IMG/VR virus record: IMGVR_UViG_3300029305_003510
Span: 166,856-230,855 of that record
DNA from: a virus
Lineage: Duplodnaviria; Caudoviricetes
Strand: one strand, 5' to 3'
DNA: 64,000 nucleotides
Position numbers and translations under genes: made by a program. How positions within the stretch are numbered: the first letter of the stretch is position 1; each line of letters opens with the position of its first letter. Below are positions 1 to 64,000 of the stretch, piece after piece. The notes under the pieces were generated by a model. That model had not been told where the DNA came from and ran no database searches. It worked only from the letters and a program-made list of their open reading frames with translations.

Positions 1-1329
1 CCTCTGGATGATAGGGTTGCAGAGATCAACTCTGTAAGTGATGATGCAACTGAAGTTCTGAAAACTGTCAATTCTGGTGATATTAAGAAAACTGTTGAAG
101 ATGTGAAGGCTGAAGCTCGTGCTAATGCGATTCAGGCTTTTCGTCAGCTCTCTGTCACCGATCAGGAGTTGAGTGATGAAGAGATTATTGAAGTCAACAA
201 TGCCGGTCTGGAAGCTGTGCAGAAGTATTTGAAAGTTGATCGAATCAATTCTGATGAAGTGATTCAGAGACTTCGTAAACTCTCTCTCCGCGATTTCCAG
301 GAATTCCTTCCTGAAAAGTTCATCAGCATTTATGTGAACCCTAGCGAGATTGCCGCTAATAACTATAAGGCGAAGGAACGTCTTCTGGCTAGTATTGCAT
401 ATCTGACTGCAACGGGCCCTGAGATGGATTATCTAAATGAATATATTGATAACGAGCATCGACTGATGGCTGTTTCTCAGCAGCTGATGAAGTGTCAGGT
501 TGATTTTGCTGATATGCTGAAGGATCCGAAGAAGATTTCTGAGATTGCAGCTGAAGCGGCGCAGATTGAAGCTCCCGATGAGACTATCTGGAGCAAGTAT
601 ATTAGAACTGATCCTAAGCGTGTGCATAATGAGTTTGCACAGAGAGCTGTAATTTGTTCTAAGTATAAAGAAGCATATCAGTCTGTACTGGAAGAGCATA
701 AGGGTGAGCCTGATGCGGTTGAAATTATACAGGAACAGATTGACGAATGCGATGCAAAATATGCTGTCTATACCAGCGTGACGAATCTGGAACTGATGAA
801 GTCTCTGTGGGACATTATGACAGAGAGATTTAAGTCTGGTAAGAATAGCTACAAAAATCTCGTCCGTGAAGGTGTTGCTGCTATTGATCGTATTCGTCGT
901 AGTAAGCAGAATGTACCTTTCCCGGTATATGATGAGAAGCTAGCTAAGCGTCCGGAGGAACTCTTTAAGCTTTATATGAAGCAGTATCCTGCTATGATCA
1001 AGCAGTATAATAGCGCAGTGATGCTGGTTAAGCAGAAAGAACCCGATGAAGTAGCGAAGACAGATATCCAGATGATTACCATTGAGGGTAAGTTTGAAGA
1101 TACTGTTGCATCCTATTTCTCTTTGTTACTTCTGATCCTGTACGGTCGTATTATGAAAAAGCTCACCGACAATACGATGACAAAATATGATGCAATCATG
1201 CTCGATGCATATTTCCAGTGCTACTGTAAGATGGGTAGTGATATCTATCTACTGACTGATGTCTGGAATATCATGAAGGACTTTGTTGCATATGCTATCG
1301 ATACCTGGCCTGTTACTGGTAAGAGGTAA
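1..1329 (+). CDS. Hypothetical protein, 5'-truncated by the window edge
   Basis: Frame 1 is open from base 1 to TAA 1329; helical and charged, no recognisable motif. Confidence 0.75.
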   Translation, partial: PLDDRVAEINSVSDDATEVLKTVNSGDIKKTVEDVKAEARANAIQAFRQLSVTDQELSDEEIIEVNNAGLEAVQKYLKVDRINSDEVIQRLRKLSLRDFQEFLPEKFISIYVNPSEIAANNYKAKERLLASIAYLTATGPEMDYLNEYIDNEHRLMAVSQQLMKCQVDFADMLKDPKKISEIAAEAAQIEAPDETIWSKYIRTDPKRVHNEFAQRAVICSKYKEAYQSVLEEHKGEPDAVEIIQEQIDECDAKYAVYTSVTNLELMKSLWDIMTERFKSGKNSYKNLVREGVAAIDRIRRSKQNVPFPVYDEKLAKRPEELFKLYMKQYPAMIKQYNSAVMLVKQKEPDEVAKTDIQMITIEGKFEDTVASYFSLLLLILYGRIMKKLTDNTMTKYDAIMLDAYFQCYCKMGSDIYLLTDVWNIMKDFVAYAIDTWPVTGKR

Positions 1330-6815: not shown

Positions 6816-7553
6816 TTAATAGTGCAACAAATAACCCCAATATTGCTCAATAATACCACGTTTTGCATACTGAAATGAATAGATATAGATATCAGATAGT
6901 GTAGACTCTTGGATACTGAGATATAGAGAATCTACATCCTTTAAACCACTGAACATAGATCGGAGAAGTGGTACTCTGATTTTTTTACCAGCATAGCGAA
7001 TAATGAACTGATAAATCTCTGGACACTCAAGAGTTTTATTCTGGAGATCATATTTCAACCCATCAAATAGCAAACAGGCTCCTCCAGGCTTAATCCGTTT
7101 CAACAGATTCGTATAAGATTCTATACAAGTCTCTACAACTGTTGCTGTTGGATCTACCGGATAGTCAAGTTTATAAGTTTCAGTGGTTACAAGTTCTTCC
7201 TGCAAATAGTAGAGGAATTTGAGTTCTGCTCCATGATTTTTCACCAAGAAGCAGAACTCTTCTTTTACATCTTTTGATTTCAGTCCAGCTGCTTTCTTTT
7301 TCTCGTCTACAAGTTTATGTCCTCTATTGTAGCGACTTAAGATTGCAGACGAATTGAGAATAAGTGTCTCATTATAGAACGAATCCTTATACTCTTCAGT
7401 ATCGGGGATGAAGAGCAAATAGTTGAGACCAACTTCACTATCAATATCCACAGTATAGCACATCATCAGCATTCTGTTATTCATAATGACATTACTGTAG
7501 CGACAACGAGTTGCGCGCCGAAGCAGGTTGATAAAGGGTTTTACTGCTAACAT
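6816..7553 (-). CDS. Hypothetical protein, coupled to the DNA polymerase N-half
   Basis: 245 aa; start overlaps the stop of the 7553..9652 gene. Confidence 0.75.
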   Translation of the reverse strand: MLAVKPFINLLRRATRCRYSNVIMNNRMLMMCYTVDIDSEVGLNYLLFIPDTEEYKDSFYNETLILNSSAILSRYNRGHKLVDEKKKAAGLKSKDVKEEFCFLVKNHGAELKFLYYLQEELVTTETYKLDYPVDPTATVVETCIESYTNLLKRIKPGGACLLFDGLKYDLQNKTLECPEIYQFIIRYAGKKIRVPLLRSMFSGLKDVDSLYLSIQESTLSDIYIYSFQYAKRGIIEQYWGYLLHY

Positions 7554-9652
7554 TATTCTTCATCCTCCTTTTCTTTACTATTTAACCGTTCCTGGAGTTT
7601 CTTATTCATTTCAGTAACAGTCGGAAGATTGAACCACACGTTGCCAAAAGAGATAATATCATGGCTCAGATAATCTGCAGTGAATTCCGCACCTGGGAGA
7701 TACGAATTGATCTCTTCAATACGTTTCTCTTGTCCCATTGGGAGAACATTCTGCCGATCACTAATTTTCTCAGGGATGATCAATCTACCGATTTGTGTAG
7801 ACTTACTTAAAGATCTGGTAAACTTTGCCCAAGGATACTCAGACGCAAAGTCCATATCCATTTCATCATCAAACACGTGTTTACTTGGGACGCCGGGGAT
7901 TAATTCAACACCAGTAGCCGTATTAAAGTCTGGATTACCAACTAGACCACCAGGAAGTATCAATTTTTTCTGAATAGAGTCATTATAAATTGAGAGAAGA
8001 TCACCAGCTACAGTTTCTGCTGCCTGCTGTGAAGTTTCATCAAATTCCTCATCACTATCAGAATCATCAACTTCTACTTCAACAGGATCAGATTCGGCAA
8101 CAGCTTCATCGTCATCAAACCCCTCATTATCTAACTCAGCTCGCATTGCTCTGGCTGCTCGGATTTCCTCCATTCGTTCCAAATAATCTTCTGTCTCACC
8201 ACGGATATAGTTGACATTTGGATTATTGCCCGGAACAAAACCCTTACGGAGATACCAGGTATAGTAGATCTGTCGCTGATAGCGAGTCTGCTTAAACAGA
8301 TTTTCAAGCGGGCAGTTCTGCTGATTCATATCATAAATCATTGACATGCAGTCATTCGTGACAATATCAATCTGAACCTGTCTCACAACGTCAGAAATGT
8401 TATAGAAGACAAAGTTCCAGTAGTCTTTCATTGCAGCATTTGTAACATCAATACCTTTCTCGAATTGATGTTTACCAACACCAAGTTCAATACGAGCAAT
8501 GTTATCGAGTTTGTTAGAACCATATGCTTTACGACCTTTACGAATGCCTGCATATGACTGCATCTGGTCTATCCAGCAGGTGGTAGATGCCATGCGGATA
8601 AAAGTTTTTCTATCAGCGATATCGATCTCCGCACGGTTATCCACATTCAGTTCTACAAAACGATATTCCTGTGGAAATGCGGGATCACACATGCAGTCTA
8701 CATAGTTAAGACCATTCATTTCCATTCTTGCTGCAAGTTTAGGAATATCGTAACCGATATTCCAGACACTCATCGTATCCGGACGCACTTTATTGATGGT
8801 TTGAAATATTGCCATTAACAGATCACTTTCATGATCGAAAAGTTGAATATGATATTCTGCCTCCAGATCAATAACACGCTTTTTACCATCTTTTTCAACT
8901 TCCTGATGGTCAAACGTATCATGACATTGTTGGATGAATTTATCCAGATTTGCTTCAAAATGTGCCTGCTGTGGATATCGTTTATGATCTCTCAACAAGA
9001 ATGTGAATACGTGCGGTTTCATCTTCTCTTTCCGGTTAGAATCAAAATTGAAGATCAACGTACATGCATTCACTTTATCTAAGTTTGCTGCTTGTTCAGT
9101 AGAACTCAGACCAAAGATATCAGCCTCGATATCGAGATATCCTTTATCGATGATATGATTTCGCATTGTATTGTAGTGATACCCGAGCATAACCCGATAG
9201 TAATCTTCAACGGACATATCAGACATACACGTATACGGCCATTTGAAGATCTCTTTAGCAGAGCTGCTATTGCCAGTTGCATAAGACTGATCGTAAATAG
9301 CTTTCATCACCTGAGAGGGTCTATCAGTGCAATCTTTCAGTTCCTCGTAGATTGTACGAAGAACCTTCTTTGCTTTTACAGTTTTCGAATATGTTTTATC
9401 GATTTCGATATATTCTCTAGGCGTCATGAAACCAGTGCGTTCTTCAGGTTTAATGAAATAGATCTCCATTTCTGGATCTTTAATAATACGGACTTTTTTC
9501 TTATCTTCCGCATCTTTATATACAATAAACAGGGTATCATCTTTCCCTGTGTTTCGGTGTTTATACTGCTGATACAGTTGTACAGAAAAGATTGTGGCCT
9601 GACTTCCTTCAGGCTCACGCAGAATATTATTCATTCCCATAAATTGCACCAT
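7553..9652 (-). CDS. Split family B DNA polymerase, N-terminal part (3'-5' exonuclease plus motif A)
   Basis: ExoI YLDIEAD, ExoII WNIGYDIP, ExoIII FYNISDV, palm motif A DMDFASEYPW. Confidence 0.85.
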   Translation of the reverse strand: MVQFMGMNNILREPEGSQATIFSVQLYQQYKHRNTGKDDTLFIVYKDAEDKKKVRIIKDPEMEIYFIKPEERTGFMTPREYIEIDKTYSKTVKAKKVLRTIYEELKDCTDRPSQVMKAIYDQSYATGNSSSAKEIFKWPYTCMSDMSVEDYYRVMLGYHYNTMRNHIIDKGYLDIEADIFGLSSTEQAANLDKVNACTLIFNFDSNRKEKMKPHVFTFLLRDHKRYPQQAHFEANLDKFIQQCHDTFDHQEVEKDGKKRVIDLEAEYHIQLFDHESDLLMAIFQTINKVRPDTMSVWNIGYDIPKLAARMEMNGLNYVDCMCDPAFPQEYRFVELNVDNRAEIDIADRKTFIRMASTTCWIDQMQSYAGIRKGRKAYGSNKLDNIARIELGVGKHQFEKGIDVTNAAMKDYWNFVFYNISDVVRQVQIDIVTNDCMSMIYDMNQQNCPLENLFKQTRYQRQIYYTWYLRKGFVPGNNPNVNYIRGETEDYLERMEEIRAARAMRAELDNEGFDDDEAVAESDPVEVEVDDSDSDEEFDETSQQAAETVAGDLLSIYNDSIQKKLILPGGLVGNPDFNTATGVELIPGVPSKHVFDDEMDMDFASEYPWAKFTRSLSKSTQIGRLIIPEKISDRQNVLPMGQEKRIEEINSYLPGAEFTADYLSHDIISFGNVWFNLPTVTEMNKKLQERLNSKEKEDEE

Positions 9653-12052: not shown

Positions 12053-14101
12053 GTGATGATGAGAATTATGAGTAAGACAATGACTGGAAAATATCTACAA
12101 GAGAATTGGATACGCGAAATGACTGATATGCTCGAACGCCTAAATCCTGATATGGATCGTAGTGCGATCGAGGATTTTGTTATTGAGCAGTATATGGAAC
12201 ACTACAGAGATCATGATGCTGTAGTATATAATAGCTACGAAAATACCGTAGCGCATACTTCACTTGGGCAAGTGGTTGATTGGATCCAAACTGATAGACC
12301 ATTGATTGCTGAGTCTGGAGTTTTCTTCTATCCGAAAGATAAAAAACGGAATGTGAATATCGAGATCATCAAAGAGTGTATGCTCGATGCTCGTACGATT
12401 CATAAGAAGGAAAAGTTCAAAGCAATGGAAGCTGGCGATATCTTTACAGCAGCTGTTAAGGATATCCAGCAGGCCAATGATAAGAAAGCTGCAAACTCTG
12501 GATATGGCGCTGAAGGTCAGTCATCCTCGTTTCTGTTTAATGTGCATTCAGCCATGTCGGTTACAGCATGTGGACGTGGTCAGTTGTCTACCGCAATTCT
12601 TTGTTATGAAAATCTTCTTGGAGACTTTGTAAAGTTTTTTGACATGGATGAATTCCATAACTTCATCCAACATATTGTGAATGAAAAAAAAGACTGGACT
12701 TTCGAGACGTTTGATGTAATTGATCGTATCCCAAGTAAGAAAGACTGGATTAATCGTTTTGAAGCCAAGTTTCTTCATCCATCTCTTTTGGATCATAAGC
12801 AGATTGAACTGATCTATGATTCTCTATCCAATGAAGAGAGAGCGAGAACTTTTTATAAAGCAAATATTAGAGACTTTATCTCTAAGAATAGGATGTTAGT
12901 GGAATTATTTACTGATATTTCTGAGACGAAGGTTGAATTCATTGACCCGAATGAAGTTCCGGAAGCGATTAAAAATGATGTGAAACTTATTTGTGCACTG
13001 GTTACGGAGTTTGTGAACTATAAGTACAGTTGGTTCCGTTATGAAGATCGCGCACGTTACCAGAGACGTGCCGTTGTGACAATCAGTGATACTGACTCTT
13101 GTTTCTTGTCATATGGGCCAATGTTGAAATTCCTGTATGACAAAGTCATTCCAATGAAACTTTGGAAGAGATCAGATAGCGATGCAAAGAAATCTCATAA
13201 GATCAAGATGTTAAATGTTTTGTCATGTTGTTCATCTGCAGCGATTGAGAATACTCTGTTTAATTACCTTGGATATGCCAATGTTGCAGATGAAGATAAG
13301 CCATATATTAAGATGAAAAACGAGTTCTATTATGAACGAGTTATTGTCACATATGCAAAGAAATCTTATATCGGTTTGATGACAAGACAGGAAGCGGTTG
13401 TTCTTAAAAAACCGAAGATGGACGTTAAGGGTGTTAATTTCTTTAAGTCTACAGCAAGTGAGAAGACATCTGAGTTTATCTATGATAAGGTACTCATGGG
13501 GCAACTGTTAAGACCAGAAGATGGAAAAATTTCTCTGCGAAGAACGTATAAGACAATCTCCGATTTCCAAGAACAAATTGCGCATGAGATTAAGCAGGGT
13601 GAAATGGGATTCCTAAAGCGTTCGATTAGAGTAAAATCTGTTGATGCTTATAAAGATCCTATGCGTATCAGTGCATATAAAGCAGCATATGTTTGGAACT
13701 ATGTGAATGATGATAAGGATCGTATTGAACTCCCCGCAACAACGACTCTTGTCAAAGTGAAATTAAAGGATCAGAAAGATATTGCGGCATTAGCACCATG
13801 GCCGAAAATCTATGAGCGAATGATGAAACTCTTCGAGACGGATCCCAACTTTGGTGATCATGAAGTTGAGAAAGATGGTAAAGTTCGTAAAGTAAAGGGC
13901 GCTGGTGTTAATGCGATTGCTCTTCCGGATGATTATGACGAAGTACCTGAATGGATCCTAGCAATCATCGATGTACAGACTTTGGTGAATGATAATATGA
14001 GACTATTCAGCCAGTTGTATCTTCCTCTTGGTTTGTCTTCTGGAACTGCAAAAGGCACAGGTTCTCAGGCGAAATATTACACGAGCATTGTTCGTATTTA
14101 A
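12053..14101 (+). CDS. Split family B DNA polymerase, C-terminal part (motifs B and C)
   Basis: KKAANSGYG (motif B), ISDTDSCF (motif C), KKSY and MDVKG. Confidence 0.88.
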   Translation: MMMRIMSKTMTGKYLQENWIREMTDMLERLNPDMDRSAIEDFVIEQYMEHYRDHDAVVYNSYENTVAHTSLGQVVDWIQTDRPLIAESGVFFYPKDKKRNVNIEIIKECMLDARTIHKKEKFKAMEAGDIFTAAVKDIQQANDKKAANSGYGAEGQSSSFLFNVHSAMSVTACGRGQLSTAILCYENLLGDFVKFFDMDEFHNFIQHIVNEKKDWTFETFDVIDRIPSKKDWINRFEAKFLHPSLLDHKQIELIYDSLSNEERARTFYKANIRDFISKNRMLVELFTDISETKVEFIDPNEVPEAIKNDVKLICALVTEFVNYKYSWFRYEDRARYQRRAVVTISDTDSCFLSYGPMLKFLYDKVIPMKLWKRSDSDAKKSHKIKMLNVLSCCSSAAIENTLFNYLGYANVADEDKPYIKMKNEFYYERVIVTYAKKSYIGLMTRQEAVVLKKPKMDVKGVNFFKSTASEKTSEFIYDKVLMGQLLRPEDGKISLRRTYKTISDFQEQIAHEIKQGEMGFLKRSIRVKSVDAYKDPMRISAYKAAYVWNYVNDDKDRIELPATTTLVKVKLKDQKDIAALAPWPKIYERMMKLFETDPNFGDHEVEKDGKVRKVKGAGVNAIALPDDYDEVPEWILAIIDVQTLVNDNMRLFSQLYLPLGLSSGTAKGTGSQAKYYTSIVRI

Positions 14102-15285: not shown

Positions 15286-16266
15286 ATGGCCTACAATAAT
15301 AACTATCAGAATAACCAGGGAGGATACCCCCAGAGAAGGTCTACTGGAGCACCTCGTAACAGTGCTCCTCGTACTCAGCAGCGTGAACCTCAGGAGCAGA
15401 GCACTGGTCCCACTCTCTACAATGAGCGTGCTGGCAAGTTTCTAAATTTCAATTACTGGGGACGTTACGCCAGTATCGAGATTGGTATCGTCCAGCCTGG
15501 TAGCGCTATGAACTGGGATGCTCGTAAGAATGCTCAGAAGGTTACTCAGGTTGTAGCCTTTGAGAATCTGAGCGAGATTTGGGATATCTGTGAGGAGGTT
15601 CTGGATTCTTTGAAGAATACCGGCACCTTTACTTCTGCTGGTATTCGTGTCGGCATGAAGCAGGATGCTATGGTCGAGATCAATAACGGCTCTACGATCA
15701 ATATGGCTCCTGGTATCTATCTGGTTATTTACAAGAATCTGGATAGTGGTAATCGTACCAATAATCTGGAGATCTATCCTTTTGAGGATGTTCGTATTGT
15801 TCGCGGATATGATCATAGCTCTGGTATGGCCAAGGATGATATCAGCAAAGTTGGTCAGTTCAAGAAGTTCTATCGATTGATCAGAGAAGCCGCCAAGGCC
15901 TTTACCATGGCTCAGGTACATGCTCTGCAGGTCGTTACTAAGTCCGATCGTCTGGGCACTTTCAAAGCACTGACTTCCATTTCTCAGGCTCTCGGTGTAG
16001 ATATCTCTTCTGAACTGAATAAGCTCAGCGGCAATCCCAATAAGGGTAATAATAATGGTGGCGGTTATAACCGTCAGGGTGGTGGAGGATACAATGCTCC
16101 TCGCGGTAACTGGCAGAGCAGTGGTTCTCCCCGTAGCGCTACTTTTGAATCTGGTGCAGATTCCTACAAGGCTCAGCAGCAGATTATGTCCACTCTGGAT
16201 GATCCCGTGGATATTAACCTCTCTATGGAGAGCCTCACGAACGTTGACATGAGTCAGTTCAAGTAA
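15286..16266 (+). CDS. Hypothetical protein, possibly ssDNA-binding
   Basis: N/Q/G-rich disordered ends around a beta-rich core; strong codon bias; AACA-N6-TA at 15246. Confidence 0.4.
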   Translation: MAYNNNYQNNQGGYPQRRSTGAPRNSAPRTQQREPQEQSTGPTLYNERAGKFLNFNYWGRYASIEIGIVQPGSAMNWDARKNAQKVTQVVAFENLSEIWDICEEVLDSLKNTGTFTSAGIRVGMKQDAMVEINNGSTINMAPGIYLVIYKNLDSGNRTNNLEIYPFEDVRIVRGYDHSSGMAKDDISKVGQFKKFYRLIREAAKAFTMAQVHALQVVTKSDRLGTFKALTSISQALGVDISSELNKLSGNPNKGNNNGGGYNRQGGGGYNAPRGNWQSSGSPRSATFESGADSYKAQQQIMSTLDDPVDINLSMESLTNVDMSQFK

Positions 16267-25439: not shown

Positions 25440-26987
25440 ATGGAACCTAACACTGAAACTTTTTATCAGTTAGTGCCGAAGAAGCATACGACGAAACTGA
25501 GACTGAATAGAGTAAAAGACAATGCGATCATATTTCGTCATGGTCACATTGCTATTACTAATTATGAGTTAGGACAGAACCGTGAATTCGAAAAATCAAT
25601 ATCCACATGGGAAGAGATGCAATGGAGATATGATCGCAAAGTTGGTTATTATGTTCCAGAATTAAAAGAATTTCGCATTCCTCGCGGATTTAATACTGAG
25701 CAATTAGCACAGTATTTTAAAGGATATAATGTTCGAGTAGACAATAATGCGGTTTATCCTGCAGATAAAATCAAAATAGATCTTCTTACACCACCCCGCG
25801 ATGATGAGCAGCGGGTGGGCCTTTCTTTTCTGTGCTGTCAGGGAGAATTCACAAGAAACGCTCGTTATACTACTTTAATGCTAGATTTAACGACCGGGTC
25901 TGGAAAGTCGTATACAGCAGTAGCTGCCACATGCTTTATGCAAGCGCGTACGTTAATAGTTGTTCCATTTAGCAAACTGCTTGATCAATGGAAGATGTCG
26001 TATTTAAATTTCACTTCTCTTAAAGAAGATGAAATTCTTATCGTTCAAGGTAGTAAGACATGTGAAAAGATTATTGCGGGAGAATATACGCATATAAAAG
26101 TATTTATCATGATGTGTGATACCTTGGACTCTTTCAATAAACGTCATGGTGATTTAGAAACTATTGAACTTCTTCGATCTACAAATGCTTATGTGAAGAT
26201 TATTGATGAAGTTCATAGAGATCTGAAAATCATTTCTAAAATTGAAGCTCTCAGCAACTTTCACATGAACTTTTATCTTTCGGCTACTCCAGGTAGAACA
26301 CAAAGAAAAGAAAACTGGATCTTCAAAACATGTTTCTATCATGTACCCAAGTTCGGCTCAAAGTTTAAGACAAAAGAAGAGAAACATCTCAATGTGATTG
26401 TTAAGAGGTATTCTTTTGTACCAACGCCGGCGCAGATTAGTCGCATGGTTCATAGACAGAAGAAATGGCTTAATGGTAAGAGCTATGAAAAAGAGCTTAT
26501 GTATGCACCAGATGAACAAAAAGCGGATTTTGTCAACAGTCTAAAAGCTATGCTTAAATGGAGCAAAGGTCTACTCAAGGATGGGAATAAGATTCTTATC
26601 CTCAGTGAGACTATTGATGGTACAGAGTTTACTCGTCATATTGCAGATGAGATCTTTCCAAATAAGTGTGCACGATACTATGGGCAGATGAAAGATGCTG
26701 ATAAAGAAGAGGCGTTAAAAGCCACTGTTATTTGTGCAACAATATCTTCTCTTGGTACTGGAGCTGATATGCCAGGAATTCAGCATGTATACAATATTAC
26801 GACATATTCTAGTCAGATTACAGCTATACAAACTGCCGGTCGTGGAAGAAAACTAAAAGATGGTGTTAGCGTCTTCTATATTGAGCTAGTAAATCTAAGT
26901 TATCTGAAAACGCTGCGCCAGTATGAGAAGAGAAAACCTAATCTGATTAAGATTTCTAAAACCGGAAAGATAATGGTCATAGATTGA
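25440..26987 (+). CDS. Superfamily 2 DExH helicase (UvsW-like)
   Basis: LTTGSGKS, IIDEVH, LSATP, LGTGADMP, QTAGRGR. Confidence 0.9.
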   Translation: MEPNTETFYQLVPKKHTTKLRLNRVKDNAIIFRHGHIAITNYELGQNREFEKSISTWEEMQWRYDRKVGYYVPELKEFRIPRGFNTEQLAQYFKGYNVRVDNNAVYPADKIKIDLLTPPRDDEQRVGLSFLCCQGEFTRNARYTTLMLDLTTGSGKSYTAVAATCFMQARTLIVVPFSKLLDQWKMSYLNFTSLKEDEILIVQGSKTCEKIIAGEYTHIKVFIMMCDTLDSFNKRHGDLETIELLRSTNAYVKIIDEVHRDLKIISKIEALSNFHMNFYLSATPGRTQRKENWIFKTCFYHVPKFGSKFKTKEEKHLNVIVKRYSFVPTPAQISRMVHRQKKWLNGKSYEKELMYAPDEQKADFVNSLKAMLKWSKGLLKDGNKILILSETIDGTEFTRHIADEIFPNKCARYYGQMKDADKEEALKATVICATISSLGTGADMPGIQHVYNITTYSSQITAIQTAGRGRKLKDGVSVFYIELVNLSYLKTLRQYEKRKPNLIKISKTGKIMVID

Positions 26988-48717: not shown

Positions 48718-49077
48718 ATGGCTAAGAAAGATAAAAAGAGTGAAGTCACATTCAAGATCCATAAAGTATATGGCTTCCTCTCAGCTAAAGAGGATAAAGT
48801 CTTCGTTCGTGTTTCCTGGAACGATGGTGAACCCAGAGACGAAGTCCGAAAGTGTTGGAAAGATAAAGATTCTGGAGAGCTCAAACTCGGAAAGGGTATC
48901 GATTTGAGCGAAGAAGAAATCGATATGCTCAAAGGATTCTGCAAAAACAAACCAAAGCCCGTTGACTTTCAGGCCGTTTTCGACAGCTCTGTCGGTATTA
49001 TGGAGAAACGAGCTGCCGGATTCCAAACTGAAGACGGTTTCACTGTGCTCCGGCGCAGAAACAATCTGAAGCTGTAA
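48718..49077 (+). CDS. PC4/YdbC-like ssDNA-binding protein with a C-terminal extension
   Basis: VSWNDGEPRDEVRKCW...KLGKGIDLSEEE matches the YdbC pattern; ends QTEDGFTVLRRRNNLKL. Confidence 0.7.
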   Translation: MAKKDKKSEVTFKIHKVYGFLSAKEDKVFVRVSWNDGEPRDEVRKCWKDKDSGELKLGKGIDLSEEEIDMLKGFCKNKPKPVDFQAVFDSSVGIMEKRAAGFQTEDGFTVLRRRNNLKL

Positions 49078-56977: not shown

Positions 56978-58108
56978 ATGGCTATTCTCAAAGAGCGTCT
57001 GAAGCGACGTAATGAGTCTGGTGGATACGATACTATTTACCTCGAAACTAATAGTAGTGTCGTCCTTATGAGCGATGGAACGTCACTTGAAACTAAATTT
57101 AATGAGATTTCAAATGAGATAAAAAATATATCCAGCGGTCCAGCTCTTAGTGATACTGCGCCATTGATTAATGGAACTGCATCTGCCGGAACCGCAACTA
57201 CAGCTTCACGTTCTGACCATGTACATCCTACGGATACAACAAGAGCCGCATCTTCACACAATCATGCAGCTTCTGATATAACTTCTGATACACTTGTTAT
57301 ATCAAGAGGTGGCACTGGACTAACAGCCAGTCCCTCTATGCTTACTAACTTAGCTAGCACAACTGCAGCTAATATTTTAGTAGCATCGCCTCGTCCAGGA
57401 GTAACAGGAACTCTTCCATTAGCCAACGGTGGTACCGGCAAGACTACATCACCTCTGGCACTGTATGCACTGATCAATGGCAGCACTGCATTGGCTTCTA
57501 CTGGTCTTGCTGATGGAGACTACATTCCCATCGGCGATGTTAGCGCTTCTACTGGTAAGAAGGTCACACTTGCTAATTTAAAGGCATATCTCAAAACATC
57601 AGGTGCATTAGTTTTTGATGATGATGTTGCATCTGTAGAAATTGGCAGTATAATAAGCTGGGCCGGATATAACTGGTTGGTTGTTCACAGAAATACTAGT
57701 AATAATACAATCACATGTTGTCTAAATAAAGTTACAACTTCTACGAAATCTAATATTAAACTTAGCACTCTTCAAAGTTTTATTGAGACTTTACCACAAT
57801 CTTCACTAACACGAGCAGTATCAAAATCGGTTAAGTATTATCATGGCACATACGATGATGATGGTAATGAAGATTATACAACTTACAATTCAAAAGTTTG
57901 GTTTGCGTCATATAGTGAAATATATAATAATACGTTTTCATATTTTACAACTCTTAATAATCGTATTGCTACTACTGAGACTGGGATTACCAACGCATCT
58001 TGGCATTTAGCTGATAGTGCCTACGTCACTGGTACTGGCGCATTACAAAGTAACACTGGCGCTGGTAGTTATTATATACGTCCATTTGTTACACTCTCTG
58101 CATCTTAA
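56978..58108 (+). CDS. Tail fibre/adhesin with a C-terminal C-type-lectin-fold (DUF6273-like) domain; paralog of the DGR target
   Basis: ASRSDHVHP, HNHAASDI and GGTG fibre repeats; C-terminus KVWFASYSE...NNRIA...WHL...YV...G...IRPFVTLSAS aligns with the target at 63767. Confidence 0.7.
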   Translation: MAILKERLKRRNESGGYDTIYLETNSSVVLMSDGTSLETKFNEISNEIKNISSGPALSDTAPLINGTASAGTATTASRSDHVHPTDTTRAASSHNHAASDITSDTLVISRGGTGLTASPSMLTNLASTTAANILVASPRPGVTGTLPLANGGTGKTTSPLALYALINGSTALASTGLADGDYIPIGDVSASTGKKVTLANLKAYLKTSGALVFDDDVASVEIGSIISWAGYNWLVVHRNTSNNTITCCLNKVTTSTKSNIKLSTLQSFIETLPQSSLTRAVSKSVKYYHGTYDDDGNEDYTTYNSKVWFASYSEIYNNTFSYFTTLNNRIATTETGITNASWHLADSAYVTGTGALQSNTGAGSYYIRPFVTLSAS

Positions 58109-60541: not shown

Positions 60542-62047
60542 TCAACTATCTGTATCATAGATAGCGTCGAATAGCATGTCCCCGGAAGATCTCAATGCAC
60601 TCTTTGCTTTAGACTTCTTTCCAGGTTTACGACGTTTCTTAATATTAGCTGGGTGGAATGGATTATCATAATCATTATTATGATTAGCAAGAAAACTTTG
60701 AAATCCGGCCATCAGATAATATTCAGGATTATTCTTAACCCGTTCACGTTTATCAGCCTCCCAAGCTTCTCTCTTTGTAATCTTACGAGGCATAAGCTGC
60801 ACAAACCCATCCACATCCCGCAGAGTATTATCTTCTCGGATTTTAAGCTTAAAGAAACCATCTTCATCAAGGTTTGTCCAATCGATACAAAGGTCTCGGT
60901 AAGATTCGACAATTCCCTCTTGTTCAGCGATCATCTTTTGCGCTTTAGCATATGCATTTTTGGCTTTATCACTATTACCATGAATCGCATACGCATGCCA
61001 TGATTGAAGAGAATCTTTTACATTGTCAGTCGTAATGCGACCGTGCTTAATCATCTTTACTTGGCGCTTTGTTCTTTTCAACATTTTATTGATACTCTTA
61101 CTACGGATATATGTATTAACCTGATGTGTATTAGCATCATACACTACATGATATCCCAGGAAACAAACACCCTGAGCAAATGGATGAATATGAGTCTTTG
61201 GATTCAATTTCATGAGAAGAATATCTTCAACATATTTCTTAATTTCTTTATAGCAATACTCAAGATATTCTCGACTCTCATGAATCATATAGAAATCATC
61301 CATATAACGACCGTAGCACTTAATATGTAGTTTCTCTTTGATAAAATGATCGAGCACGTTTAAGTAATATACAGCAAGCCACTGAGATGTCTGAAATCCA
61401 ATACATAACCCTTTACCAGGCTTTTCTACATATGGATTGATATCAGCTGTACATGCATCGATTACCAGTCGAATTAGTCTTGATAATTTCTTATCTACTG
61501 GTAGATTCTTAACCATACTCCAACAGACTTCATGATCAATATTGTAGAAAAACTTTGTAATATCACATACTAGAACCCATCCCCTGTCGGTCCAGTCTAC
61601 ACTCTTTGCATGGATTCGCATAAATCGTTCCAATCTTTGTAGACCAAGATGTGTACCTTTCTTTGGCTGACTGGCATAGTTATCGTATATCATCTTATTA
61701 CCAAGAAGATGTCTCAATACATTCTTGGATAATAAGTCTTGTACAATTTTATCTTCAAATCCATCGGCAACAACTTCCCGTTCTTTTGGCTCATATACTT
61801 TGAAACGATTCAGATCACCAAATTCATATTTCTCACCACATAGCTTCTTATAAAGCTTACGAAGATTTTGATACATGTTCATATGATACTGAATCGTAGA
61901 AGTTCGATATATTTTACCCTTACGAACGTGTTTATATGATTTCAACAGATTCTGAAAAGTGACGACATCCTCAAATCGTATCACTTCACCATTCTTTAAT
62001 CGCTGAAGAGGAATCGGAACTTCCTCACGTTTTGAATATTTGCCCAT
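60542..62047 (-). CDS. DGR reverse transcriptase with a C-terminal extension
   Basis: KEREV, YASQPKKGTH, CDITKFF, GLCIGFQTSQ (DGR-type GxxxSQ), RYMDDF, FLGY. Confidence 0.95.
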   Translation of the reverse strand: MGKYSKREEVPIPLQRLKNGEVIRFEDVVTFQNLLKSYKHVRKGKIYRTSTIQYHMNMYQNLRKLYKKLCGEKYEFGDLNRFKVYEPKEREVVADGFEDKIVQDLLSKNVLRHLLGNKMIYDNYASQPKKGTHLGLQRLERFMRIHAKSVDWTDRGWVLVCDITKFFYNIDHEVCWSMVKNLPVDKKLSRLIRLVIDACTADINPYVEKPGKGLCIGFQTSQWLAVYYLNVLDHFIKEKLHIKCYGRYMDDFYMIHESREYLEYCYKEIKKYVEDILLMKLNPKTHIHPFAQGVCFLGYHVVYDANTHQVNTYIRSKSINKMLKRTKRQVKMIKHGRITTDNVKDSLQSWHAYAIHGNSDKAKNAYAKAQKMIAEQEGIVESYRDLCIDWTNLDEDGFFKLKIREDNTLRDVDGFVQLMPRKITKREAWEADKRERVKNNPEYYLMAGFQSFLANHNNDYDNPFHPANIKKRRKPGKKSKAKSALRSSGDMLFDAIYDTDS

Positions 62048-62321
62048 AGTATATTGATTCCTCCTTATAAGTCAATGCGGCAGTAAAAGTCCCTACCATC
62101 CCACACTAACACCGAGGTGTCAGGTAGGACGGTAAGAAACAACCACACATGGTACGCGTGGGCGGATAGAACCGTCCAGGTTTGCATGCATGTGCCAAGA
62201 GTTAATTCCCCGAACATATTTCAGCTCAGGAAGGATAAAGCTCCCTTCGATACTCAACCGATTTCGGTGTTCCGGCCGCCCCGGATAACACCTACTTTTT
62301 CTATAAGCACCGAATCAACCA

Positions 62322-62412
62322 GGGGCCGGAACCCATTAGAATTGCTGGGATTGTTGTTGTTGATGCTGCCGTCAGTATTCACGTTGTACACGTTACTAGA
62401 GCTGTTGGCGGT
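62322..62412 (-). repeat. DGR template repeat (TR)
   Basis: 91 bp with 10 AAY codons and 29 adenines on the minus strand; matches the VR at every non-A position. Confidence 0.95.
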
Positions 62413-62524
62413 TTTGTTGAGCCAAACCCTTTATAACCATGTTATCAGTTTCCAACCGCCAACTATACAGCATCAACAACGTATAAATATCACGAGCCCC
62501 TGGTTGATCAGACTATCTTGGTTA

Positions 62525-63505
62525 CTATTCATGCGATGGTACTTTATAAATCCCACGAAGATCTTCTGCACTGATATTAATTGGAGCCGAAATACAAGCT
62601 TCTTTCACAACAGCACTGCGATTAATCAAATCTGCTACGATATTATCAGAAGGATCATCACTTGTCTGTAAATCAAAAATACGATCGGCTACATAGTTAT
62701 TATAGTCCTCATCAGACATACCCATTTCACCGGCAAACATTCGCGGCAGAATAAAAGGCGTCTTTCGACGCTTCAAAACAAAGAATCCTTCACGATCATA
62801 CGCACTACCGTAATAATGTTGCTCAAGAGCTTTATGACGAAAACGATCATCGAAAATAGTTGTCAGAGAATCATCATTATCAAGACCATCGTCCTCATCA
62901 GCTATACTGAGATCGATATCAAACATATCAGGACTAATTTCGATCTTTTCAGTAGCTCTCTTTGTTTTATCCACAATTTTATTAACACTCTCGATAACAT
63001 CTTCTCCAGTGACAAGTTTCGGAGGCTGACCATTTAATACAAGTTCTTCCTCTTTACGTTTCATCTCACGGATCTCTTCTTTTCGTGTTGCTTTCTTAGC
63101 TGCACGGCGGGTGTTACGAGTCCAACGCTTAAAGGAATCTGTCGCTTCATCATACAAAGCAGCTAGATGTCCAGGGTTGTTAATTCGAACAATGCCCAGT
63201 GATATAACCATCAGTGCTTTCACATTCAAAAGATGCTGTAGTGCAGCATTTTGGAACTTGAGAACTCGCTCATAATCAGCAGGTGTGACAATACGTTTAT
63301 ATGCACCATTGTAAACATGACAACAGAGATCGATACAGTTATTTCTCAACGCACTACTTAAGGTATATCGATATGCTTTTGGGAACTGTTTCTCGTTACT
63401 TGTGATTTTGAAGATATATTCAGTCAACTTCTCGCAGGATATGACTACCGAAATACCAGATGGTTTCTTGTTGCTCATATATTTCGGTATAGACATAAAA
63501 TTCAC
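62525..63505 (-). CDS. avd: Avd-like DGR accessory protein (four-helix bundle) with a long C-terminal extension
   Basis: FPKAYRYTLSSALRN...R..FQNAAL..L...W pattern; lies between target and TR; 326 aa. Confidence 0.8.
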   Translation of the reverse strand: MNFMSIPKYMSNKKPSGISVVISCEKLTEYIFKITSNEKQFPKAYRYTLSSALRNNCIDLCCHVYNGAYKRIVTPADYERVLKFQNAALQHLLNVKALMVISLGIVRINNPGHLAALYDEATDSFKRWTRNTRRAAKKATRKEEIREMKRKEEELVLNGQPPKLVTGEDVIESVNKIVDKTKRATEKIEISPDMFDIDLSIADEDDGLDNDDSLTTIFDDRFRHKALEQHYYGSAYDREGFFVLKRRKTPFILPRMFAGEMGMSDEDYNNYVADRIFDLQTSDDPSDNIVADLINRSAVVKEACISAPINISAEDLRGIYKVPSHE

Positions 63506-63643: not shown

Positions 63644-63766
63644 AAATGTGTTTATATGTGTTATGCTATATTAGGCTTCTCTTCGCTGCAAAGTCCATTG
63701 TGATTGTCCTTTGGGCCAACCACGACTTTGCCACTCGATTCGCCTGTAAGAGTCGTTACACTCCTC

Positions 63767-64000
63767 TTACGATGCTGCTAAAGCAACATGGGGCCGGAAC
63801 CCAAGAGAAGTGCTGGGAGCGCTGCTGTAGACGCTGCCGTCAGTACGCACGTCGTACACGCCACCAGAGCTGCGGGCGGTAGCAAGCCACCACACTGTGG
63901 CGGTGCCGCTATAATTTGCCACTCTATTAGTAGCAGACATCGCATAGTACAAGAATGTGCTGGAAGCCTGAGTATACGTAGGAATCCAAATCTTATTAGA
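63767..64000 (-). CDS. DGR target protein (CLec-fold C-terminus), 5'-truncated by the window edge
   Basis: Frame open from 64000: SNKIWIPTY...VWWLATARSSGGVYDVRTDGSVYSSAPSTSLGFRPHVALAAS*. Confidence 0.9.
   Translation of the reverse strand, partial: SNKIWIPTYTQASSTFLYYAMSATNRVANYSGTATVWWLATARSSGGVYDVRTDGSVYSSAPSTSLGFRPHVALAAS
63790..63880 (-). repeat. DGR variable repeat (VR)
   Basis: Ungapped 91-bp match to the TR with 17 mismatches, all opposite TR adenines. Confidence 0.95.

Follow-up and report, generated by a model that had tools for sequence, protein, structure and literature searches.

In the 64-kb window analyzed here, which forms the end of a virus contig of 230,855 bp and 41% G+C, a short peptide recurs on the reverse transcriptase (RT) and the Avd-like accessory protein of a diversity-generating retroelement (DGR) and on a PC4/YdbC-like single-stranded DNA (ssDNA)-binding protein. 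To judge from sequence comparisons, this peptide is a clade-wide tag and not a feature specific to the DGR. Counting degenerate N-terminal forms, it was found on about 22 proteins of the genome, and its carriers are nearly all nucleic-acid enzymes. The tag is enriched over chance, is selected at the peptide level, lies preferentially near protein ends, is conserved in orthologues, and is absent outside the clade. We propose that it docks its carriers onto one shared reader on replicating phage DNA, a replisome hub, and give this reading somewhat less than even confidence.

Recurrence, form, and conservation of the tag

A first-pass annotation of the window had described four copies of a motif, [DT]x[DE]GFxxLxxR, in these proteins. 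All four were found where they had been placed, but the ends given for two of them fell one codon short (the full spans are 60833 to 60871 and 49024 to 49062). Its lengths of 326 amino acids (aa) for Avd and about 130 residues for the C-terminal tail of the RT were confirmed by the open reading frames (ORFs) and by the end of the RT core. The features concerned are listed below; positions refer to the window unless the genome, meaning the whole contig, is named.

48718..49077 (+), PC4/YdbC-like ssDNA-binding protein, 119 aa; family profile matches
49024..49062 (+), tag of the PC4-like protein, Q-T-E-D-G-F...; core pattern present in orthologues
60542..62047 (-), DGR RT, 501 aa; RVT_1 at E 8e-14, AlphaFold2 (AF2) model with a predicted local distance difference test (pLDDT) of 85.8, orthologues
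60833..60871 (-), RT tag copy 1, residues 393-405, L-D-E-D-G-F...; modelled hairpin, kept in orthologues
60782..60820 (-), RT tag copy 2, residues 410-422, R-D-V-D-G-F...; modelled hairpin, kept in orthologues
62525..63505 (-), Avd-like accessory protein, 326 aa; weak Avd matches, upstream of the template repeat (TR) and the RT
62762..62800 (-), Avd tag, Y-D-R-E-G-F...; only G, F, and L are invariant within the tails of 5 orthologues

The original expression gave 7 matches in the genome, 4 of them within the window, compared with a mean of 0.015 in 200 shuffles, which places the motif well above background. An 8-residue core matched 17 times in the genome (0.73 expected from shuffles), and a position-specific scoring matrix found 19 to 20 matches, compared with about 1 in shuffles and none in the reversed genome. 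The consensus, (R/Y)-D-x-(D/E)-G-F-x-x-L-x-(P/R), spans about 12 residues; D, G, F, and L are invariant, with no Gln among them. Synonymous codons vary among the copies at the invariant Gly, Leu, Phe, and Arg, with four different codons for Gly, for example, and the likeness is therefore held at the level of the peptide. Copies were found at either terminus, and 14 of the 20 strongest lie no more than 40 residues from a protein end, compared with 26.5% expected. In the AF2 model of the RT, each copy folds back as a tight hairpin that turns at D-x-D-G-F, and beta-bridges join residues 393/394 to 399 in copy 1 and 410 to 416 in copy 2. Beta-prone residues follow the tag Phe. We propose that the motif would form a tight beta-hairpin consisting of a strand, a D-x-D-G turn, and then F-x-x-L-x-(P/R). 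As is general for short linear motifs, the tag recurs above chance on unrelated proteins, is conserved amid variable flanks, and lies outside folded domains, the last point with the caveat that the RT tail was modelled at a pLDDT of 72 to 92.

Using tblastn, we found the phage to be distantly related (about 25% identity) to Bacillus phages AR9 and PBS1 and, likewise distantly, to Staphylococcus S6-like phages and Yersinia phiR1-37, a group of jumbo phages that have split multisubunit RNA polymerases and are without chimallin (10.1101/2023.02.24.529968). AR9 homologues were found for 38 of its proteins. Protein searches recovered a large uncultured clade of 220- to 260-kb contigs in ENA, Logan, and NCBI metagenomes, some of them mis-binned as Ruminococcus flavefaciens or Muribaculaceae; a scan of IMG/VR with an RNA polymerase (RNAP) subunit as query returned no relatives.

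Conservation of the tag was followed in four protein families. All four copies on the beta-N subunit of the non-virion RNAP (nvRNAP) were kept in 14 orthologues that are 38 to 63% identical in the tail, where the linkers vary and contain indels. Most RT orthologues from jumbo contigs carried the tag once or twice, and its place within the tail differed among them. Avd had the tag at or near its C terminus in 5/5 phages examined, behind linkers of 20 to 100 residues. For the PC4-like protein, the core pattern lay within the last 32 residues in 40 of 61 representatives (one for each cluster at 50% identity), and several more had near-variants. Column conservation was higher in the tag core than in the rest of the tail for beta-N (0.90 versus 0.53), RT (0.76 versus 0.27), Avd (0.95 versus 0.24), and the PC4-like protein (0.69 versus 0.40). 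Linker lengths differ by tens of residues, and the D-G-F version of the tag was present in all relatives seen.

A profile built from 17 copies recovered 17/17 in its own genome and, with the threshold relaxed to E<=10, matched nothing in AR9 (251 kb) or in phiKZ (280 kb). AR9 gp105 (496 aa) aligns to residues 1 to 493 of the 616-aa beta-N, ending where the tail starts, and the tag-bearing 108-residue N-terminal extension of the ligase is absent from AR9 gp095. The tail of the PC4-like protein is likewise absent from AR9 gp093 (78 aa) and from the solved YdbC proteins (79 to 82 aa). None of 47 distant RTs (about 43% identity; 328 to 456 aa, mostly 343 to 376; from contigs of up to about 60 kb) carried the tag, and their alignment covered the core only. 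The motif is thus conserved in orthologues from related phages, and the closest homologues outside the clade lack the tails or the tag, two outcomes on which the first-pass annotation had made its proposal depend.

Further carriers were found throughout the genome.

Genome 81735-82580, phrog_21037 protein, tag at the N terminus
Genome 90647-91303, HNH endonuclease, tag in the C-terminal tail
Genome 116662-118449, divergent DnaB-like helicase, tag in the C-terminal tail
Genome 124330-125178, HNH endonuclease, tag in the C-terminal tail
Genome 148939-151374, NAD-dependent ligase, tag in the N-terminal extension
Genome 153701-155551, nvRNAP beta-N subunit (AR9 gp105 orthologue), four copies in a 120-residue C-terminal tail
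Various positions, about 8 proteins without a family match, tag mostly terminal
25440..26987 (+), ResIII-type helicase, 515 aa, degenerate N-terminal tag E-T-F-Y-Q-L-V-P-K; ResIII/DEAD Pfam matches in orthologues

The degenerate N-terminal form consists of an acidic residue, F-x-x-L-x-P, and a basic residue, and was also found on GyrA and two small proteins. Matches on GyrB and on the polymerase part of the family B DNA polymerase (PolB) are doubtful. The tag is on only one nvRNAP subunit, but there in four copies. Untagged proteins include the terminase, a 3571-aa tail lysozyme protein, the anaerobic ribonucleotide reductase (NrdD), and tubulin, and also both PolB parts, an ssDNA-binding (SSB)-like protein, UvsX, SbcD, a RecD-like helicase, and nvRNAP beta-C. 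The first-pass annotation was right that the motif is a real tag outside the conserved folds, but not in limiting it to three proteins. Nor is it confined to "imported" proteins, as had been supposed, since it is also found on core AR9-type genes (nvRNAP beta-N, DnaB, ligase, and gyrase). Free-standing HNH genes adjoin the genes for GyrB (genome 125168-127537) and NrdD (genome 91502-93151), and both HNH proteins end in the tag. These selfish elements seem to have adopted the address peptide of the phage.

The PC4-like protein consists of a core up to about residue 80, a linker, and a conserved 32-aa C-terminal module with the sequence V-D-F-x-x-I-F-x-S-S-x-G-I-x-E-K-R followed by the tag, in which it ends. 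Its family profile matched PC4 at E 1e-3 and, at E 1e-14 to 6e-12, the YdbC/SP_0782 proteins of known structure; the single sequence remained under the Pfam cut-off (20.2 versus 25 bits), and tblastn in cultured phages gave no match. In short, core-only homologues (74 to 102 aa), the whole C-terminal module is absent. The idea that this protein might be recruited as a DGR cofactor found no specific support: it is one of about 22 clients, and a PC4-family gene belongs to the AR9-type gene set (AR9 gp093).

Proposed docking and the search for a reader

Three points are inferred: the tag has a protein as its binding partner, this reader is the same for all copies, and it is located in the replisome. 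The proposal of the first-pass annotation that the peptide serves for docking or localization was a natural one and is kept here. In this mechanism, the tag, fused via variable linkers to either end of numerous unrelated enzymes that act on nucleic acids, would dock each carrier, copy by copy, onto one shared candidate reader on replicating DNA. The reader would be a "toolbelt" hub that acts in the way that sliding clamps bind client peptides. Helicase, ligase, gyrase, the late RNAP, homing endonucleases, and small ssDNA binders would thereby be concentrated at the replisome, and the late RNAP, with its four copies, would bind with high avidity. The DGR would be one more client: as the tag is always on Avd and usually on the RT, cDNA synthesis and retrohoming would be physically linked to the machinery that replicates the phage. 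The untagged polymerase parts, SSB-like protein, UvsX, SbcD, and beta-C would fit this mechanism as the hub itself or as proteins riding along with it. In T4, polymerase, ligase, and late-transcription factors share one clamp (gp45) via terminal peptides.

Several observations weigh against a replisome hub. The polymerase is without a clear tag, unlike T4 gp43, and Avd and homing endonucleases are unusual clients for such a hub. Some copies are not terminal: one lies at residue 129 of a 279-aa protein, and those of RT and Avd are 77 to 95 residues from the C-terminal end. With its pLDDT of 72 to 92, the RT tail is not simply a floppy string, and its hairpins may therefore pack on the carrier and not hang free; they might rest on the carrier until bound. 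Arg/Lys runs follow many copies, so the peptide may bind nucleic acid directly. In the PC4-like protein, the conserved C-terminal module (48970-49062, +; about 32 residues) is longer than the tag, so the protein may carry a second element. Finally, sequence searches for a reader demonstrated no clamp-like protein in the genome.

In this search, the clamp families PF00712, PF09116, and PF00705 had no match in the genome at E<=1. This agrees with the published view of the AR9-type polymerase group, which is described as being without a classical clamp (PMC7824862). Chimallin, represented by phiKZ gp054 and PF25677, had no match at E<=10. The genes around the polymerase were considered individually; PolB is split into two genes on opposite strands, and in some relatives an HNH gene splits the polymerase part again.

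6816..7553 (-), 245-aa ORF, untagged; its start overlaps the stop of the PolB exonuclease part; candidate processivity factor or reader
7553-9652 (-), PolB exonuclease part, 699 aa, with an acidic insert
12053-14101 (+), PolB polymerase part, 682 aa
15286..16266 (+), Whirly/PUR-like ssDNA-binding protein, untagged; AF2 model, Foldseek matches to PURA, MRP1/2, and WHY, alignment; candidate hub

As a candidate clamp, the gene that follows the PolB polymerase part was rejected, its product being a weak P-loop-kinase-like protein, and so was the next one (15286-16266), which has a Whirly/PUR-like ssDNA-binder fold instead. This Whirly/PUR/MRP-like protein (326 aa) is found in the clade only and has disordered, low-complexity arms rich in N, G, Y, and R, together with a conserved acidic C-terminal peptide, D-D-P-V-D-I-N-L...F. 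From its model it looks like a non-OB SSB with a tip resembling the SSB C-terminal peptide (SSB-Ct). Co-folding of its core with the RNAP tail and its four tags scored zero, a result that counts neither for nor against docking. Translational coupling links the 245-aa ORF to the PolB exonuclease part, an arrangement kept in relatives, and the size of the ORF fits a clamp subunit. It had no Atlas or NCBIfam match and no hhalign similarity to T4 gp45, and its profile found nothing meaningful in the PDB (best match, KIN17 at E 2.3). A Pfam search of ten large unknown proteins, among them the two after tubulin, produced no hub candidate, and the 3571-aa protein was discarded as a scaffold because it is a tail lysozyme/peptidase protein.

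Alternative readings and known systems

An alternative that we consider unlikely, but the most viable of its kind, is that the tag is a compartment address signal which, in the manner of a nuclear-localization or encapsulation peptide, would be read by an import or sorting machine. This machine would move the carriers into a condensate or a replication compartment formed without chimallin, or retain them there. The tagged proteins (helicase, ligase, topoisomerase, nvRNAP, and nucleases) overlap with the cargo of the phiKZ nucleus (PMC13282480), and the phage encodes a tubulin, which AR9 does not (genome 138784-139971, Pfam Tubulin at E 4e-16; no AR9 homologue at E 1e-5). The selfish HNH endonucleases and both DGR proteins are tagged separately, as if each polypeptide needed access to phage DNA, and the tag occurs at either terminus via a variable linker, as encapsulation peptides of microcompartments do. 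However, neither the phiKZ protein nor PF25677 revealed a chimallin in a genome that is apparently complete, given its overlapping ends. Import into Chimalliviridae nuclei reportedly proceeds without terminal signals (PMC13282480). The polymerase parts, SSB-like protein, UvsX, SbcD, RecD-like helicase, and nvRNAP beta-C are untagged, and four copies on one subunit suggest avidity, not sorting. Entry into a phage DNA compartment, which the first-pass annotation had offered as an example, therefore lost ground. A hub is favored over an entry signal because the polymerase and the SSB-like protein, which are needed wherever the DNA is, are untagged, because only one late-RNAP subunit is tagged and carries four copies, and because the GyrA tag is only degenerate and the GyrB match only doubtful.

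Improbable to a greater degree is a direct role of the peptide, in which hairpin and basic tail would form a small nucleic-acid-binding element that raises the affinity of the carrier with no protein reader. The R/K runs after many copies would suit such an element, all carriers act on nucleic acids, and the four RNAP copies would add affinity. On the other hand, none of the invariant positions (Asp, Gly, Phe, and Leu) is basic, and a DNA-binding peptide would not be expected to conserve two acidic residues. In half of the copies, Pro takes the place of Arg behind the Leu and a basic run is missing. Tight DNA binders such as the PC4-like protein, gyrase, and helicase would gain little.

We attach still less weight to a regulatory site, through which a protease, degradation adaptor, or modifying enzyme would switch replication and transcription proteins together. 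A shared, exposed, and conserved peptide on functionally related proteins could serve in this way, and tails and linkers, where it lies, would be convenient places for cleavage. Yet about 12 constrained residues and a hairpin exceed what known phage protease sites need, four repeats on one tail make no obvious regulatory sense, and no enzyme is linked by gene neighborhood. An origin of the motif by chance or composition, or as a functionless repeat at the DNA level, is hardly credible: its shortness alone would speak for this, against the shuffle and reversed-genome controls, the synonymous codons that differ between copies, its retention in orthologues at 38 to 63% tail identity, and the lack of a match in AR9 or phiKZ. 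Also discarded, because residue spacing or chemistry did not match, were a calcium loop of the EF-hand or dockerin type, a YD repeat, a membrane-targeting helix, and a prohead-protease site. A virion-packaging signal was discarded because AR9 gp105, to which the tagged RNAP subunit is orthologous, is a non-virion protein.

The tag was compared with sliding-clamp client peptides, the SSB-Ct interactome, encapsulation and encapsulin cargo peptides, Chimalliviridae import, and the cohesin-dockerin system. Peptides of sliding-clamp clients (the PIP box, bacterial QL[SD]LF, and the gp45-binding termini of gp43, gp33, and gp55 in T4/RB69) are likewise short, sit on flexible ends, and occur on polymerase-associated enzymes, ligase, and transcription proteins, a terminal placement found here as well. 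One reader, many clients, and multicopy avidity are shared with the proposed hub. In sequence, the tag (D-x-D-G-F-x-x-L) does not follow the clamp consensus Q-x-x-[LIM]-x-x-[FY][FY] or Q-L-[SD]-L-F, and its modelled hairpin differs from the 3-10 helix or extended Q-L-x-L-F of those peptides. Neither a clamp nor a clamp loader was detectable in the phage genome, whose polymerase is not clearly tagged, and Avd, RT, HNH endonucleases, and the PC4-like protein go beyond the usual set of clamp clients.

In the interactome of the SSB C-terminal tip (SSB-Ct; also the acidic tails of T4 gp32 and T7 gp2.5), a hub bound to ssDNA serves many enzymes through a peptide-pocket contact; the SSB-like protein of the phage has disordered arms and ends in a conserved acidic tip. 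The polarity is reversed: the peptide is on many clients in the phage and on the hub in SSB. Microcompartment encapsulation and encapsulin cargo-loading peptides are also terminal, at either end, on unrelated enzymes, behind poorly conserved linkers, and lineage-specific, but they bind a shell protein, either as amphipathic helices or as tails of the G-S-L type, and no shell protein is known in the phage. Nucleus import in Chimalliviridae (PicA/Imp1 and partners) likewise involves jumbo phages with split multisubunit RNAPs, tubulin, and the same enzyme classes. It reportedly depends on surface patches, a 2026 review describing phiKZ-type import as proceeding without terminal signals (PMC13282480), and here no chimallin was detectable. 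Dockerins resemble the tag as small transferable modules that bring unrelated enzymes to a single scaffold. They are folded, extracellular, calcium-binding domains of about 70 residues and have no sequence relation to it.

The retroelement, its phage, and the meaning of the tag

Besides RT and Avd, the DGR comprises a template, two alleles of a variable repeat (VR), and a target gene.

62313..62412 (-), TR, between avd and the RT gene; blastn against the genome
63781..63880 (-), VR allele, TR match; a second allele lies at the contig start (genome 83-182)
Genome 69-1196 (-), DGR target gene, 375 aa

Pfam RVT_1 covers RT residues 98 to 301, and an NCBIfam group-II RT model matched at E 1e-28, below its own cut-off. 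The RT core ends near residue 340 to 370, since RTs from outside the clade (343 to 376 aa) align to only 67% of the query. After both tags, two confidently modelled helices (residues 425 to 454; 60560-60780, -) contain a conserved N-P-x-x-Y motif and are followed by a Lys/Arg-rich end. The Avd-like protein has a helical core up to about residue 130 and then a long tail. Its matches to the Avd family were weak but repeated (bAvd at E 0.043, NF033474 at E 0.01 to 0.035 in three orthologues, and PDB 2GSC at E 0.41), and together with its position, core size, and the verified TR/VR pair, they tentatively identify it as Avd. Its orthologues are 164 to 185 aa long, so the 326-aa protein is unusual, in tail length only.

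The 100-nt TR was 84% and 80% identical to the two VR alleles by blastn against the genome, and where they differ, the TR has an A on the coding strand. Apart from the variable positions of the DGR, the first 260 bases of the contig exactly repeat its last bases: 63700-63960 and genome 1-260 are identical save at VR positions that match TR adenines. Two VR alleles at the contig ends are, at the level of sequence, population evidence for an active DGR. As the ends overlap, the contig very probably represents an entire genome, circular or circularly permuted, and the two alleles of this one hypervariable site probably caused the assembly break. A 376-aa tail-fiber-like protein (56978-58108, +) has a C terminus like the end of the DGR target; blastn of the TR against its gene gave no match, and it is therefore probably a non-diversified paralogue.

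Literature searches found no published description of such a tag, in agreement with the first-pass annotation. What appears to be new is one mostly terminal peptide on about 20 unrelated DNA- and RNA-handling proteins of AR9-related jumbo phages. We know of few phage examples in which one peptide code organizes the whole replication and transcription apparatus, the clamp clients of T4 being the classic one, and, to our knowledge, no linear signal has so far been found in nucleus-forming jumbo phages. More broadly, and with appreciably more doubt than attaches to docking itself, the AR9-related gut and rumen clade may run a peptide address code, with one hairpin tag, a reader that is a clamp-like factor or a chimallin-independent compartment, a DGR coupled to replication, and selfish elements that copied the tag.

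A conserved and easily mutated handle of 12 residues offers an experimental route to the organizing hub of a phage group that lacks a recognizable clamp, to how the DGR connects to phage DNA metabolism, and to whether homing endonucleases copy the address tags of their host phages. It would also serve as a ready-made means of directing foreign proteins to phage DNA. If the address-code reading is true, the DGR would be physically coupled to phage replication, and selfish elements would have copied the tag for access.

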